From Candidatus Onthoplasma sp. (GTDB lineage Bacteria; Bacillota; Clostridia; Christensenellales; UBA1242): a stretch of 64,000 bases of DNA. Shown here one piece after another: positions 25,769 through 44,128 of this stretch (within the stretch, counting starts at the first letter, position 1; each line of letters begins with the position of its first letter). The translations under genes and the position numbers were made by a program. The DNA lies in assembly GCA_045578345.1 (NCBI GenBank), contig JAZNKB010000008.1:121376-185375 (forward strand). The letters are read 5' to 3'. The notes below the pieces were generated by a model. That model was not told the DNA's origin and did not search any database. It saw only the letters and a program-made list of their open reading frames with translations.

Positions 25769-27028
25769 CTAATTGTCGCTATTATTAGTTTCTTCAGTGT
25801 TGACATTATTATTGTCTAATAAGCTAAATTCTTCTGGAACGTATGATAATAATTTTTCTTTATATTCAGCATAAACTTGTATAACTGCTTGCAATTTTGC
25901 CTCAAAAATTTCTTCCCTGCAACATCCGTTTTCCATTGTTTTTCCTGATTCTAAGATTAATTCATCTCTACGTTGTTTCATTTCATCTAAATATGGAATT
26001 TCTTCAACTTCAGTTCTTGCCATTCTTGAAGATTTTAAATGTTTGTGTTTTAGGCCATACATATTTAACAACTCTGAAACACTAATTCCCATCTGAACTG
26101 ACTTTTTAACAACCTTTCCATAATCTTTTGGATCAACATCTTTAGCAACAACGACATTGTCTTTGCATTGAATTTTTAAGTTTATAATTGCTTGATCAAT
26201 GTTGGTGTTTTCCCTTGTAACATCCCAAAATCTATGTTCAACATCACTAAGCCCAAAGATTTCCAACCAATCAAGTTTGCTAAATCCTAATTCGCTACCA
26301 TCACTATAATATCTGGTTAAATATTCAAATGCATTGTAAACTTTTGGATGATCTCTTCTAATTCCAACAAAAGTCCCATATTTTTTTGCATGATTTTTCA
26401 ACATTCTTTCAGTGAATTTAACTTTATCCACTTCAATTATGTATGATGTTTGTTTTTCATCACACAATAAGCAAATAATAAAATAATATGGCACACGATA
26501 TGTTATTGCAATATCTTTCACATATGTTCTTAAATGTTCGTTGTTTCTATAACTGTCTATATAGCCATTTTCGTCTCTAAAGTCTTTTAACTTTTCAAGA
26601 TCCTTACAACGATAATAATCATCAGAAAAATTTAAATAACCCAAATCGAATTTCATGATTTGTTCGTGAGTTTTGAACTCTCCCCGCCTTTCCAAATGGT
26701 TTGAATATGTTGCCAATTGTTCATAAAACGGTAATTTCTTTCTTGGAATATGAAAACTTTTCCCTTGTGCAACATAATCAGCAACCGCTTCAACAAGTGC
26801 AAGCCGTGTGTCTTTCACGTATTTTGCATTTCTTGGATGATGCAATTTTTTAAACTTCTCTTCCAAAGTTAAAACCTTACCATTTTCTCCAACAACTCTT
26901 GTGTTTTTAATGTATTTATATTCTTTATCATCCTTTCCAAGATTGTTAACGTCTCCACCTGATGCTACATAATCATCCAACATTTTCTTTGCTTTAACAA
27001 AAAAAATTGTATCTTCAAAAAGCGACAT
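25769..27028 (-). CDS. Hypothetical protein with about five degenerate 55-70 aa helical repeats
   Basis: 419-aa ORF, RBS GGAGG, own promoter. Confidence 0.75.
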   Translation of the reverse strand: MSLFEDTIFFVKAKKMLDDYVASGGDVNNLGKDDKEYKYIKNTRVVGENGKVLTLEEKFKKLHHPRNAKYVKDTRLALVEAVADYVAQGKSFHIPRKKLPFYEQLATYSNHLERRGEFKTHEQIMKFDLGYLNFSDDYYRCKDLEKLKDFRDENGYIDSYRNNEHLRTYVKDIAITYRVPYYFIICLLCDEKQTSYIIEVDKVKFTERMLKNHAKKYGTFVGIRRDHPKVYNAFEYLTRYYSDGSELGFSKLDWLEIFGLSDVEHRFWDVTRENTNIDQAIINLKIQCKDNVVVAKDVDPKDYGKVVKKSVQMGISVSELLNMYGLKHKHLKSSRMARTEVEEIPYLDEMKQRRDELILESGKTMENGCCREEIFEAKLQAVIQVYAEYKEKLLSYVPEEFSLLDNNNVNTEETNNSDN

Positions 27029-30702: not shown

Positions 30703-32124
30703 TTACTTTAATTTATATGTTGTTCCTTCTTTTGTGTCGATTAATTCAATGCCTTTTTCGGCTAGTTCATTTCTGATTTCATCTGCTTTTTGATAGTTCT
30801 TTTCTACTTTTGCTTTTTTACGTTGTTCAATCATTTTTTCAACATACGCTTTGAGTTCACCATCAATTTCAACTTCTACTTCAACTTCAGTTTTTAAATT
30901 GAACGCATCTGCTAACCCCAAATTTAAAACAGTGTCGAAATCTTTAATTAAAGCAATCTTAGTGTCGTTATTAACATCCGCTTTTAACACATCAAAAATT
31001 GTTGTTATTGCCGTTGCTGTGTTTAAATCATTCGCTAAGCATTTTTGGAACTTTTCTTTATGCTCATTAAACTTTTCCATATCAACTGGCAAGTTTTCAG
31101 CTTTTAAGTTTGTTAAACGTTTGATGAGTTTATCATATGCTGATTTTGCCATATCAAGACCTTCGTATGAGAAAACAAGTTGACGTCTATAATGAGATTG
31201 CAAACAGAAGAACTTGTAAACCATAGGTGAATAACCTTTTTCTTCAAGCAAACTTAAAGTTAAAAATTCACCTTTGCTCTTGCTCATTTTTCCGATTGTT
31301 GTGTTTAAGTGTTCTGAATGGAACCAATAATTACACCATTTATGACCAACAAAACTTTCTGTTTGAGCAATTTCATTTGTGTGATGCGGGAATTTATTGT
31401 CAACTCCACCACAGTGTATATCTAAATATTCTCCTAAGTATTTATGCGAAATTCCCGAACATTCAATATGCCAACCAGGGTAACCCTCGCCCCATGGACT
31501 ATCCCATTTAAGAGCATGGTTTTCAAATTTAGACTTGGTAAACCATAAAACAAAGTCATTTTGATTTCTTTTACCTACATCTTCTTCAACATCATCTCTT
31601 GCACCAACAACCATGTCATCACTTGTTTGATTTCCAAATTTATAATAACTATCTAGTTTTGATGTGTCAAAATAGATATTGCCATTGCTATGATAAGCAT
31701 ATCCTTTTTCAAGAAGTGTTGAAATGATTATTATATATTCATCAATACATGATGTTGCAGGAACAACAATTTCAGGCCATTTCAAATTTAATTTTTCACA
31801 ATCATTTTTGAAACAATCTGTGTAAAACTTTGCAATTTCCATAACTGTTTTATTTTCTCTTTTTGCACCCATGAGCATTTTATCTTCACCTGTGTCGCCA
31901 TCACTTTGGAGGTGTCCAACATCTGTGATGTTCATTGCTCTTGTTACATTATAACCCAAATAGTTAAGAGAACGTTCCAAAATATCTTCCATTATGTAAG
32001 TTCTCAAATTCCCAATGTGAGCAAAATGATATACTGTTGGACCACAAGTGTACATCTTAACATTTTTGCCATCGTTGGGAATAAAATCTTCCACTTCTCG
32101 GGATAATGAATTGTATAATTTCAT
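30703..32124 (-). CDS. cysS: Cysteine-tRNA ligase
   Basis: CGPTVY, HIGN, PGWHIECS, KMSKS. Confidence 0.97.
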   Translation of the reverse strand: MKLYNSLSREVEDFIPNDGKNVKMYTCGPTVYHFAHIGNLRTYIMEDILERSLNYLGYNVTRAMNITDVGHLQSDGDTGEDKMLMGAKRENKTVMEIAKFYTDCFKNDCEKLNLKWPEIVVPATSCIDEYIIIISTLLEKGYAYHSNGNIYFDTSKLDSYYKFGNQTSDDMVVGARDDVEEDVGKRNQNDFVLWFTKSKFENHALKWDSPWGEGYPGWHIECSGISHKYLGEYLDIHCGGVDNKFPHHTNEIAQTESFVGHKWCNYWFHSEHLNTTIGKMSKSKGEFLTLSLLEEKGYSPMVYKFFCLQSHYRRQLVFSYEGLDMAKSAYDKLIKRLTNLKAENLPVDMEKFNEHKEKFQKCLANDLNTATAITTIFDVLKADVNNDTKIALIKDFDTVLNLGLADAFNLKTEVEVEVEIDGELKAYVEKMIEQRKKAKVEKNYQKADEIRNELAEKGIELIDTKEGTTYKLK

Positions 32125-32195: not shown

Positions 32196-33632
32196 TTAAC
32201 CAATTTTGCTTTCAAAGAACTTAATTAAACATTTCTTGGCAAAATCAGTGTTCACGTAAGCAAACCATTTTAATTCTGCGTTATTTATAATTTCACCATT
32301 TTCTTCTTTGTCAAAAATAATTTCAATCATATCTCCATCATAAAGTTTTGTGTATGGTGGAGATTTTGTTTTTGATCCATTTATGATTGCATATTTAAAT
32401 CCAAACCCTATTTCCTTATGGATTTTGAATGCAAAGTCTAAAACAGTGCTATTCTTTTGAATGTATCTTGTTTCTCCTGAACGTGTTTTAACTTTAATGA
32501 GTTCAACGTCTAAACTATCTAAGTTATCTTCATCCAGCATATTGCTATCATAACCATCAAGAGTTCCATTTCTTTGCATAATATAATCTGAAATACTTTC
32601 AATGTAAACATTAAATTTATTTTTGTAATTATCTTCAATTTGATAATATGGTTTTTTGGTGAAATTCCCAATTTTTGCATCAATAATTTTAATGCTACTC
32701 ATACTTTTATTAAATATGCTTAAAACTTCAGACATGACATCTGAATAATTTTTCCCCGCCTTATATAAAAGGTATATGTTATAATTGGTAACTTTTAAAA
32801 TTTGACCCTGTGAAACTTTTGAAATATTGATATTTTTAAACAGTTTCCTTAAATCGTCAAAAACTTTATATTCTTTAACATCTTTTATCTTTATTGTTGT
32901 GATTTGACTGTTTTGGAAAACCTTATTAAACCTTTCAAGCAAATACTCAATATGCTCTTTATTTGAGTTGTGATAGTCATTATATCTCCTTAAAAAATTT
33001 TGACCATCTATTCTATGTTTGATTTTAAAACATTCATTTGAAATTGCACGGAAAAAATATTCAGCATTCATTGTTTTTGCAATTGGAATAATCCATTTTT
33101 CTGTTTCTTTAACCTTTTCAAGTTGCTTGTTATAATCAAAACTTTCAATCGTTCTAAGATTATGAAGTCGGTCTGCAAACTTAATTGCAAAACCAAGCGG
33201 ATTTTTCTTACCAATTGCAATCAATTTTTTAAATGATTGTTCTTCAAGTGATGCTTTTTGGAAATTAACATCAACATAAACATCATCTTCGTCAAAAACA
33301 AATTTTGTTTTGTCGATTGCGCTAACACAATCCACCATCTCGGCAATTTTTTTGTTAAATTCGTTTGTTATTGTTTCGATGGTGCAATCACAATCTTCAA
33401 CCACATCATGCAAAAGTGCAGCACAAACAACATTTTCATCAAAATCAAGTTGAGAAAGTGTGTGAGCAACTTCAACTGGGTGAGAAATATATAATTTCCC
33501 ATCCTTTCTTCTTTGATCTTTATGCATAAGTTTTGCAAACTCATATGCTTTTTCTATCAAATGAGTTGAACTATCATTTTGAATGAAAACCTTTTTGATT
33601 TGATTAAATCTTTTATCAATCTCAGCGAACAT
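32196..33632 (-). CDS. RelA/SpoT homologue: intact HD hydrolase, degenerate synthetase, TGS; no ZFD/ACT
   Basis: RKDG..HP..LHDVVED..KFADRLHN; TGS TVLDFAFKIH. Confidence 0.88.
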   Translation of the reverse strand: MFAEIDKRFNQIKKVFIQNDSSTHLIEKAYEFAKLMHKDQRRKDGKLYISHPVEVAHTLSQLDFDENVVCAALLHDVVEDCDCTIETITNEFNKKIAEMVDCVSAIDKTKFVFDEDDVYVDVNFQKASLEEQSFKKLIAIGKKNPLGFAIKFADRLHNLRTIESFDYNKQLEKVKETEKWIIPIAKTMNAEYFFRAISNECFKIKHRIDGQNFLRRYNDYHNSNKEHIEYLLERFNKVFQNSQITTIKIKDVKEYKVFDDLRKLFKNINISKVSQGQILKVTNYNIYLLYKAGKNYSDVMSEVLSIFNKSMSSIKIIDAKIGNFTKKPYYQIEDNYKNKFNVYIESISDYIMQRNGTLDGYDSNMLDEDNLDSLDVELIKVKTRSGETRYIQKNSTVLDFAFKIHKEIGFGFKYAIINGSKTKSPPYTKLYDGDMIEIIFDKEENGEIINNAELKWFAYVNTDFAKKCLIKFFESKIG

Positions 33633-34587
33633 CAACGCCCTCCTTGATTAATTTATAAACAACATCATCTTCTCTGTTTGTTATTTTTGCAAATCTGAAA
33701 ACATTTGCTTCCAAAATTTCATTGAAATGATATTCAATTTTATTTTGCAATATTGCAAGTTTTTGATTTTCATTTAAACTTAAAGATATTTCATTTTTTT
33801 CTGCAAACAAACGTTTAAACAAATCTGCCATATCTTTAATTGCGTAATCAAGATTCACGTTTATTTTATCAAACTTCAAACAATCGTAGATTTCACCGTC
33901 TGGCTTATCAATCAACTTCTGAGACAAAATTATAAATTGCACGCAAGGATTATGTTCTCTTCCCCTTGCCATTGTGTTAACAGTCCCAACTCCGCCAATA
34001 TATTTTGTGTTTGATGGTGGATTATTGAATATCATATTACATTGGTCACCATTAAACTTATTGTATAAATCGAAGTATATGCTTTGTTTTGTTGAATTTA
34101 AATTTCCTTTATAATAATTCTTTGTTGCATGATAAATCCTGATTATTTCTTCACCAGACTGAGAAAGATTTAGGTCTCTTAAAATGTTAACCGCTTCACT
34201 TTTATCTTTCATAAATACACCATAAACCAAAACATTATTGTTTAATTCTTTTTCTTTAACAACACTAATAACACCATAATTTAATGTGTTTGAAAGATTT
34301 GTGTGCACTTCGCCTTTATATGAATTATTATTATAATAATAAACTAAATAGTTTCCAATAAATCTATCAAAACTAACTTGATTTTCGGTTTCAATTTCGG
34401 AAAACAAAAAATCATCAATGCAAATTCCAAAAGCATTTTTAAGCGCAATCAAAAATTGAATCGAAGGTTCGCTTGACTTTGTTAAATAGTTATTTATACT
34501 GGCTTGTGAAAACCCAGTTTGCTCAGCAATGTGTTTCTGAGTGTATTGACTTGCCAAAACTTTTAAATTCTTTTGAAAATTACTCAT
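33622..34587 (-). CDS. XRE-family HTH regulator fused to a predicted beta-barrel domain
   Basis: TQKHIAEQTGFSQASINNYL..EPS; strand-rich C-terminal domain; stop overlaps the RSH start. Confidence 0.8.
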   Translation of the reverse strand: MSNFQKNLKVLASQYTQKHIAEQTGFSQASINNYLTKSSEPSIQFLIALKNAFGICIDDFLFSEIETENQVSFDRFIGNYLVYYYNNNSYKGEVHTNLSNTLNYGVISVVKEKELNNNVLVYGVFMKDKSEAVNILRDLNLSQSGEEIIRIYHATKNYYKGNLNSTKQSIYFDLYNKFNGDQCNMIFNNPPSNTKYIGGVGTVNTMARGREHNPCVQFIILSQKLIDKPDGEIYDCLKFDKINVNLDYAIKDMADLFKRLFAEKNEISLSLNENQKLAILQNKIEYHFNEILEANVFRFAKITNREDDVVYKLIKEGVDVR

Positions 34588-34800
34588 GACATACTCCTTT
34601 AAACGTTCATCAAATTGTTAATTCATATAAATATTTTAATCTATAATATAGTAAAAGTCAAGACGTAAATACAAAAAAGTGAATATATTATTAAAAATCT
34701 GATAAACGTAATTCATTTTTCTGAATTTCGATTTAATAAATATGAAAATCTTTCTTCTTTCTAACAAAAAAAAGGAATGTTCGAACATTCCTTTTTTTTA

Positions 34801-42883: not shown

Positions 42884-43960
42884 TTATTCAACAATTGAAA
42901 TTGTTTCGTTTGAAATATTTAATCTTTTGTCCGCAAGTTTTTCAACTTGATTGAAACCATTATGTGGCATTACTGCAATCAAACTTATTGACCCTTTACC
43001 CTTTGTTTCTTTTGCAAGTGAAACAAAATTTTTCATCAACATATCACCATTTTTTTCGATCCCATAAATTGAAGACATATCGTCAACAACAAGCAAAACA
43101 TCTTCCTCAATTTCCAAAATTCTTTTGGCACGTTCAATTGCAAGATTAACAATTCTTTTCACAATATCAGTTTCATCCATAATACTTGAAATGAAATTTT
43201 CTGTATTTTTAAGTTCTGATAAATAAATTTGATTTTTGCCTGCAACTGCAACATTTACATAAAGTTTGTTTGCAATTTTCGCATTGTTAAGCAAGCGAAT
43301 TACAGTTTGAGTGTTTTGATTATTATTTGTTCCATACACATAAGTATTTTCGCCAAGTTTTATGTTTAAAGAATTTAAATCTTGTTCATTAAATTTTAGA
43401 TCCCTATTTGGAAGCACGTTTTCAATTGAGTCATAACTTTTTCTTTTTGCTGGAAGATTTAAAATTGGAGAATCATTGATTGAGAAAATTCTTTTAACAA
43501 CTTTTTGATTTTCATCAACATTAACTTCCGCAACAATTCTATCGCCCATTCTCACTTGATAATCCTGCAGAACTACGCTTGGAACAAAATAGTTTTCATT
43601 TTTAAAATTTTTCTGAACCCACAAAATTCCCGCATTGTTGTTAACAAGTTCAAGCCAACCAGCAACAGTTACAATATCTTCAGTTTTATATTCAGTGACA
43701 TCCTGATGCAAAGTTTGAACAGATGAAATTTGATTTTCATTGCCAGAATCAAAAACATTTGCAAAGTTATAATCAAAAACTTTCGGCGGTCTGCCCTGTT
43801 TTGACTTGGAAGTTGTTGGAGACTTTTTCCCAGTTGTTATTTCAACAATTTCATTAATAAGTTGTTCTTTCTTTTTGCTTGTTGGAGAATTAACACCTGT
43901 TTTTCTTGCCAAATCTCTTAATGCAAAGATGTTAAGTTCATTTAATTTTTTTTCTAACAT
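42884..43960 (-). CDS. Rho-like protein (Rho_N + OB RNA-binding + degenerate, truncated ATPase)
   Basis: LRDLARKTGV..KKKEQLI; GWLEL..GD.I; AIERAKRILEIEEDVLLVVDD; no GKT Walker A. Confidence 0.8.
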   Translation of the reverse strand: MLEKKLNELNIFALRDLARKTGVNSPTSKKKEQLINEIVEITTGKKSPTTSKSKQGRPPKVFDYNFANVFDSGNENQISSVQTLHQDVTEYKTEDIVTVAGWLELVNNNAGILWVQKNFKNENYFVPSVVLQDYQVRMGDRIVAEVNVDENQKVVKRIFSINDSPILNLPAKRKSYDSIENVLPNRDLKFNEQDLNSLNIKLGENTYVYGTNNNQNTQTVIRLLNNAKIANKLYVNVAVAGKNQIYLSELKNTENFISSIMDETDIVKRIVNLAIERAKRILEIEEDVLLVVDDMSSIYGIEKNGDMLMKNFVSLAKETKGKGSISLIAVMPHNGFNQVEKLADKRLNISNETISIVE

Positions 43961-44128
43961 ATTTTCACCTTTCGACATTTTCTCTTAAATATTAACACAT
44001 ATTCGACATTTTGTAAAGAATTTTGTACAAAATTATTTTTTGAACAATTTGATAATTCAATAAAAAAGTTTAGGATTGTTTCCTAAACTAATAGTTTGTT
44101 ATACCCATTACCCAAGCTAAGGTTTGGT

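Follow-up and report, generated by a model that had tools for sequence, protein, structure and literature searches.

A conserved gene pair of an XRE-type regulator with a predicted beta-barrel and a truncated, apparently hydrolase-only long RelA/SpoT homologue in Candidatus Onthoplasma

The DNA analysed here is a stretch of 64,000 nucleotides (the window) of contig JAZNKB010000008.1 from Candidatus Onthoplasma sp. On its minus strand lie two overlapping genes. The first codes for an XRE-type protein of 321 aa with a putative beta-barrel (34587-33622), the second for a truncated long RelA/SpoT homologue (RSH), which has 479 aa if read from a TTG (33635-32196) and 478 aa if read from the ATG at 33632. 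Both reading frames were found where the original prediction, made from the letters alone, had placed an overlapping two-gene unit. The ATG is more likely the start of the RSH, because a Shine–Dalgarno sequence, AAGGAGG (33645-33639, minus strand), is situated within the last codons of the XRE gene 6 nt ahead of it. The overlap amounts to 11 nt with the ATG or 14 nt with the TTG, and the position of the Shine–Dalgarno sequence inside the end of the XRE gene suggests translational coupling. The XRE gene is preceded by a Shine–Dalgarno sequence of its own (AAAGGAG, 34594..34600, minus strand).

Upstream of the pair, the predicted sigma-A-type promoter TTGACT-17-TAAAAT was located at 34661-34633 (minus strand, 10/12 match). 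Promoter-like sites are common in this AT-rich DNA (42 compared with 29.0 ± 5.8 in shuffled sequences), and a single site taken alone is weak. A sigma-A-like match of at least 10/12 was present upstream of 31 of 39 relatives; in the background set 157 of 470 upstream regions had one. At the 3′ side of the upstream gene, which codes for a protein of 2553 aa, a hairpin followed by T8 (34799-34766, minus strand; fold of −19.9 kcal/mol) resembles an intrinsic terminator and presumably acts as one. Since this structure would end the upstream gene, the pair likely begins its own transcript.

A Pfam search of the RSH matched HD_4 (residues 30-180, 88 bits) and TGS (residues 380-440) and did not find the RelA_SpoT domain. 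From the Pfam matches and an alignment to Rel the protein has the three parts of a long RSH, namely HD, a SYNTH-derived region and a C-terminal domain, and it matches TIGR00691 at 181 bits, which is under the full-length cut-off. Against Rel/SpoT structures it scored 108-144 bits, against small alarmone hydrolases (SAHs) 39-68 bits. The HD hydrolase domain (33096..33548, minus strand) contains R43, Y49, H52, H76, D77, E80, D81, K152, D155, R156, N159, and T162. All 11 HD residues that were checked are present, as had been predicted, and each hydrolase residue listed as important in the account of Acinetobacter baumannii SpoT (PMC9974481) has a counterpart.

The following pseudo-synthetase region (about residues 245-357; 32565..32903, minus strand) has lost its catalytic motifs by replacement. 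The motifs of the RSH synthetase site go by the names RxKxxxSxxxK, YxSLH, and ExQIRT. The positions of RxKxxxSxxxK and ExQIRT align with KDVKEYKVFDD and NVYIES, in agreement with the claim that the synthetase motifs are replaced. The claimed exchange of GYQSLH for PYYQIE is uncertain, the alignment falling across GNFTKKPYY a few residues away. Among 98 distinct RSHs of the family neither ExQIRT (0/98) nor RxKxxxSxxxK (0/98) was found, and a YxSLH pattern, searched anywhere in the protein, matched two of them. Between the end of the synthetase region and TGS, where Core lies, the median length is 23 aa in the family (45 rows) compared with 52-54 aa in the Rel groups; the family RSH has thus lost about 30 aa at the synthetase end and in the Core linker.

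In the TGS domain (residues 380-440; 32316..32498, minus strand), which was identified by Pfam and contains the motif DFAF and His406, D400 and A402 are conserved in all 98 RSHs and H406 in 91 of them. This TGS histidine is described as the residue with which Rel/RelA binds the CCA end of tRNA and as absent from A. baumannii SpoT (PMC9974481). The protein stops about 35 aa past TGS, its last element being the first helix of the helical domain (32208..32282, minus strand; W457, 98/98), and has neither ZFD nor ACT, as had been predicted. With pseudo-SYNTH and TGS present and with ZFD, ACT, and the synthetase motifs absent, it fits neither the SAHs nor full-length Rel and looks like a hydrolase-only RSH, which agrees with the original prediction on both points. 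The window RSH very probably carries out Mn-dependent (p)ppGpp hydrolysis, and it almost certainly does not synthesize (p)ppGpp.

In a mixture-model tree of the HD and TGS columns (44 of 110 aligned rows, rooted on Escherichia coli SpoT) the family RSHs form one clade (100/100) with a long stem, beside the Rel of the host family (98/86). HD-dead Rels, E. coli RelA, and A. baumannii SpoT were left out of this tree; a quick tree comprised 99 rows. The grouping with the Rel of the host family may reflect long-branch attraction. In the genus g47 (L120/G119, L121/G088, L122/G047) one full-length RSH keeps its HD intact while its synthetase motifs are decaying (WPERYYS, SVMIRT), and the companion Rel is HD-dead in G047 and G088. 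The RSH of g47 was considered as an ancestor and rejected, as it joins the family weakly in the quick tree (88) and not at all in the mixture-model tree; g47 represents an independent second split.

The partner protein starts with an XRE/Cro-type helix-turn-helix (HTH) domain (residues 1-64; 34396..34587, minus strand), which Pfam HTH_3 matched at 23.9 bits with a cut-off of 23 and whose structural matches are P22 c2, DdrO, and SinR (Z about 9). Pfam found nothing else in this protein. AlphaFold2 predicted an eight-stranded beta-barrel with an inserted helical hairpin (residues 78-222; 33922..34356, minus strand) and a C-terminal helical domain (residues 230-320; 33628..33900, minus strand). 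With an alignment of 123 rows the mean predicted local distance difference test score (pLDDT) was 92.5 and the predicted template modelling score 0.82, whereas the first model had a pLDDT of 75.8. The eight-stranded barrel of the original prediction thus appeared in the model. Conserved residues are G78-x-Y-x-x-Y, Y159-x-G161, D181, YIGGxG, G209, P214, and Q217 in the barrel and L237, N295, D307, and Y311 in the helical domain.

The XRE-barrel family comprises 431 close homologues and 880 clusters at E ≤ 0.001, and it was found under no name beyond 'HTH'. A search of the PDB with the XRE profile matched the HTH alone, the ESM Atlas returned unnamed clusters only, a cluster look-up of ten distant homologues gave no names, and Foldseek with the XRE model gave no match at E ≤ 0.001. 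Among 1157 candidates of 563-2000 aa no longer or fused forms were seen, which is weak evidence. Among the barrels matched by VIA-align with the better model, designed barrels came first (Z 8.0-8.6), followed by QH-amine dehydrogenase (7.8) and streptavidin (7.0), Z scores in the range for which VIA-align uses the term common arrangement. The barrel is therefore predicted but without a specific structural relative.

These matches bear on the claim of the original prediction that the barrel is the sensor for an alarmone-like nucleotide within a circuit acting by transcription only. According to this explanation the XRE barrel would bind the nucleotide and control nothing but the transcription of the hydrolase, giving a feedback loop without contact between the proteins. 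The HTH gene leads the operon behind its own conserved promoter, polar and glycine residues are conserved in the barrel, and small eight-stranded barrels are often ligand-binding. The first model matched Cap15 (7n34) over 102 residues at Z 8.0, with an rmsd of 3.1; with the better model, however, it was not among the best 50 matches listed, which were mostly HTH matches, the query being the whole protein, and the top barrels were designed ones. A Firmicute regulator that binds (p)ppGpp is described in PurR (PMC10117726). Upstream of 41 relatives no shared palindrome or operator was detected. The word ATAATGAT is enriched there (8 of 37 compared with 4 of 470, the relatives not being independent), but the window does not contain it and the genome yielded no Fur; TTATCA-N6-TGATAA occurs only in L021/L022 and not once in this genome. 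The feedback loop also leaves unexplained why the pair is retained with a dead hydrolase site in several lineages, as described below. Neither the nucleotide-sensing barrel nor the purely transcriptional circuit was borne out, and we consider this explanation unlikely.

The pairing of the two genes is near-obligate over deep divergence, and here the predicted conservation of the pair was confirmed. The RSH directly follows the XRE gene in 22 of 22 GTDB loci, which belong to Ca. Onthoplasma and other Clostridia metagenome-assembled genomes and have varying flanks. In the host family (121 genomes) the XRE gene occurs in 24 genomes and the RSH is adjacent in 24/24; locus L026/L027 is common to both sets. 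A sample of 301 genomes of the order yielded three full-length distant XREs from three other families, and an HD-TGS RSH stands behind every one of them (3/3). When 291 order genomes were searched reciprocally with the RSH, the same three short-frame members came back. In a metagenome scan, which used a distant XRE subgroup as query and contained some near-copies and some loci within the clade of the host family, the pair was present in 64 of 68 loci: in 60 the downstream sequence matched the RSH, and in four the N-terminus of an RSH was reached at the contig end. Three of the other four loci have at most 61 nt downstream, and the fourth (L137) has 340 nt and no RSH. The pair is kept down to about 20-30% identity, and its genes overlap or almost abut. 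Pairwise identities of XRE and RSH correlate (Pearson 0.95, 91 pairs), which linkage alone would predict. Class-wide samples (400 and 399 genomes, five candidates scored per genome) gave no full-length XRE-barrel protein outside this genome, and on viral contigs none of 8 and 19 pattern matches in two scans was confirmed. In Ca. Onthoplasma faecipullorum the entire pair is present twice on one contig (L020, L022), as divergent copies separated by about 70 kb.

Such an overlapping bicistron with the HTH gene first, patchy spread and changing flanks also recalls a toxin–antitoxin (TA) or defence module, in which the XRE protein would restrain a harmful RSH-derived protein or the HD domain would act on another nucleotide. 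Some of the distant copies have Fic, integrase, transposase or coupling-protein-like genes in their neighbourhood, and RSH-based TA bicistrons are described (10.1101/575399). The known RSH toxins are synthetases, though, and here the synthetase motifs are missing as stated above. PADLOC gave no match for the RSH and matches to the HTH region only for the XRE protein, both viral scans were negative, many flanks consist of housekeeping genes, and an RSH without XRE exists (G066). A module of this kind is very improbable.

What the pairing is for can be approached through copies that have lost the hydrolase site. In 98 distinct partner RSHs all 11 HD residues are kept by 83, two proteins lack two of them, and 13 lack at least three. 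These 13 HD-dead RSHs occupy at least three separate places in the quick tree and are still long open frames behind XREs whose barrel core is kept. Ratios of nonsynonymous to synonymous substitution rates (dN/dS) were computed for ten pairs, several of them saturated or near-identical. For the HD-dead pair L178/L189 the ratio is 0.56 in HD, 0.17 in the pseudo-synthetase region and 0.11 in the TGS end; for L178/L191 it is 0.38 in HD and 0.11 in the pseudo-synthetase region, TGS being saturated. In HD-intact pairs with finite dS the HD ratio is 0.05-0.15. Thus TGS is under purifying selection in the HD-dead pair L178/L189. The HD-dead lineage of L178, L189, L191, and L201 moreover has a tandem duplication of TGS plus helix (593 aa). 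In these four loci a cluster of radical-SAM genes with the same orientation precedes the pair.

In A. baumannii SpoT, TGS is described as a scaffold of the HD site (PMC9974481). This cannot be why TGS is kept in the HD-dead copies, because no active site is left there. Since the pair persists after loss of the HD site, hydrolysis is not its whole job, and we infer that the RSH has a second, non-catalytic job tied to its XRE partner.

For the window operon this leads to a reading in which the RSH likely hydrolyses (p)ppGpp and is likely also the direct signalling partner of the XRE-barrel factor, probably via its TGS end; as a whole we regard this reading as evenly poised between right and wrong. 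XRE and RSH would be co-translated as a pair, and the RSH subunit would contact the XRE factor in a physical complex, which we are slightly inclined to accept. Away from the ribosome, for which the docking domains ZFD and ACT have been lost, the TGS domain might read uncharged tRNA, a step that we consider somewhat less likely than not. The translation-stress state of the RSH would determine how the XRE subunit binds DNA, and in most copies the same RSH subunit would also clear the alarmone. The full version, that a long RSH has turned into the sensor of a two-protein transcription switch by an off-ribosome TGS which reads uncharged tRNA and by direct contact with XRE, is tentative and rather doubtful. 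If it is true, the switch would be a stringent-response-like regulation able to run without alarmone turnover, as in the HD-dead, TGS-duplicated copies. Covariation between the proteins over 91 paired rows (68 effective) gave noise, for the within-chain control missed the strand pairings.

Several observations weigh against a direct signalling role of the RSH. The pair is patchy, occurring in 24 of 121 family genomes and in none of three genomes of the same genus, and is therefore dispensable. A 25th family RSH (G066) stands without XRE, the XRE of L137 has no RSH within its 340 nt, and in L162 there is a second copy of the RSH with an internal deletion. Among the 13 HD-dead RSHs five are near-copies and one is cut at the N-terminus. 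The dN/dS contrast, which carries no formal test, comes from the few changes within a single unsaturated pair of HD-dead copies, the others being saturated or near-identical. His406 is lost in seven of the 98 RSHs, among them three HD-dead ones (L157, L158, L159), and D400, A402, and W457 are conserved in ordinary Rel too, so that their invariance may be structural.

The genome (1.09 Mb, 94.7% complete; named relatives include Ca. Onthoplasma of the Christensenellales) contains one synthetase match and two HD_4 matches. Ca. Onthoplasma is placed in the reduced-genome family UBA1242 (PMC12306168). The circuit had been proposed to be self-contained, and a check for a full-length rel had been suggested. 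A separate long RSH of 606 aa was found (G000:C3:82531-84351 = L004:6532-8352), which has intact synthetase motifs, no HD motifs, TGS, ZFD-like motifs, and no ACT, that is, a RelA-like synthetase-only enzyme in a Firmicute; the circuit is to this extent incomplete. In Firmicutes the RSH that degrades (p)ppGpp is described as a single bifunctional Rel (PMC10117726). Judged by its motifs, the window RSH is the only intact RSH hydrolase found in the genome. One Nudix gene scored over the cut-off and might be an alternative alarmone hydrolase. CodY and Fur were both not found in this genome.

These findings could mean a division of labour, in which the RSH supplies the hydrolase lost by a synthetase-only Rel and XRE tunes its expression. 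The HD_4 profile finds just these two RSH genes here, and among the 24 pair-bearing family genomes 18 have an HD-dead Rel. Five of them, however, have an HD-intact Rel (one is without long Rel), as do all three pair carriers of other families, and the pair is missing from 29-31 family genomes whose Rel is HD-dead. Presence of the pair was not associated with the HD state of Rel (18/47 compared with 5/21, Fisher p = 0.28; 18/49 compared with 5/19, p = 0.57, if the doubtful Rels of G055 and G095 are counted as dead; related genomes are not independent). Division of labour therefore probably fits the role in this genome and not the reason why the pair exists, for which we consider it an improbable account.

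Of 68 family genomes examined, 47-49 have only HD-dead long Rels, several of them without another HD_4 match (e.g. G013, G065). Among the 121 family genomes 33 gave no match to HD_4 and 39 none to RelA_SpoT, many of these being more than 90% complete. The stringent factor seems to have been lost repeatedly in this reduced-genome family.

As for the surroundings of the pair, no terminator was found in the window sequence between the RSH gene and cysS (30703-32124). Aminoacyl-tRNA synthetase genes are often situated near the pair in unrelated contexts (L012, L018, L021, L036, L146, L163, L167, L170, besides the cysS of the window), a nearness that may be due to chance. They include hisS, aspS, and a ThrRS/ProRS-type gene assigned by Pfam as well as trpS, metG, and argS, which were judged by eye from the N-termini. 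Further away, 42884-43978 codes for a Rho-like protein of 364 aa, which matches Rho_N and the Rho RNA-binding domain weakly and whose ATPase part looks degenerate. The product of 25769-27028 is a protein of 419 aa without Pfam match, which is conserved next to polA in one relative (45% identity).

Full-text literature searches, whose coverage left out most subscription papers, gave no description of the XRE–RSH pair. What appears to be new is a Firmicute clade of hydrolase-only long RSHs without Core and ribosome-docking domains that is tied to an unnamed transcription-factor family. The family RSH may coincide with one of the 13 long-RSH subfamilies defined in 10.1101/575399. If it is true that the two proteins bind, an RSH would be wired straight to a DNA-binding output, for which no example was found in the literature searched. 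The natural series of HD-intact, HD-dead, and TGS-duplicated copies makes an off-ribosome role of TGS, and HD activity without Core, ZFD, and RRM, accessible to experiment, and it bears on the regulation of the starvation response in reduced-genome gut bacteria such as this one.

Among known systems, toxSAS have a toxic synthetase domain, in contrast to the pair in the window. SAHs (Mesh1, paSpo, pbcSpo, and SAH antitoxins) share the hydrolase-only RSH activity and are partly encoded in bicistrons, but they are single-domain proteins of about 180-200 aa. The Cap15- and streptavidin-like barrels resemble the predicted barrel in size and strand count, yet with 5-11% identity and Z scores of 7-8, and here an HTH and a helical tail are fused and a helical hairpin is inserted. 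DarB, which is not known as a transcription factor, and PurR both differ from the XRE protein in that neither is an XRE-barrel protein and neither is co-encoded with a dedicated RSH. DarB is described as binding a long RSH and PurR as a transcription factor responsive to the alarmone, which offers precedents for these two functions (PMC10117726). RshC[HS] of Bacillus is likewise a second-copy Firmicute long RSH cut within the helical domain after TGS; by its description it may differ, being classed with HD plus SYNTH and limited to six Bacillus strains, and no XRE partner appears in that description (PMC3153485).

A close likeness is to SpoT[Hs] of A. baumannii (Moraxellaceae; PDB 7qpr; PMC9974481), which is described with an intact HD, a pseudo-synthetase, a short interdomain linker, and TGS. 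The window RSH, which coexists with a synthetase-only long RSH, is however a Firmicute protein of a separate, apparently Rel-derived clade, A. baumannii SpoT itself standing outside the tree. It is without the remainder of HEL, ZFD, and ACT and has the deletion at the synthetase end and Core linker, whereas truncation to that length is reported to have impaired A. baumannii SpoT (PMC9974481). The family RSH mostly keeps the CCA histidine that A. baumannii SpoT is described as having lost, and the near-obligate XRE-barrel partner and the HD-dead paired copies are features of the family RSH.

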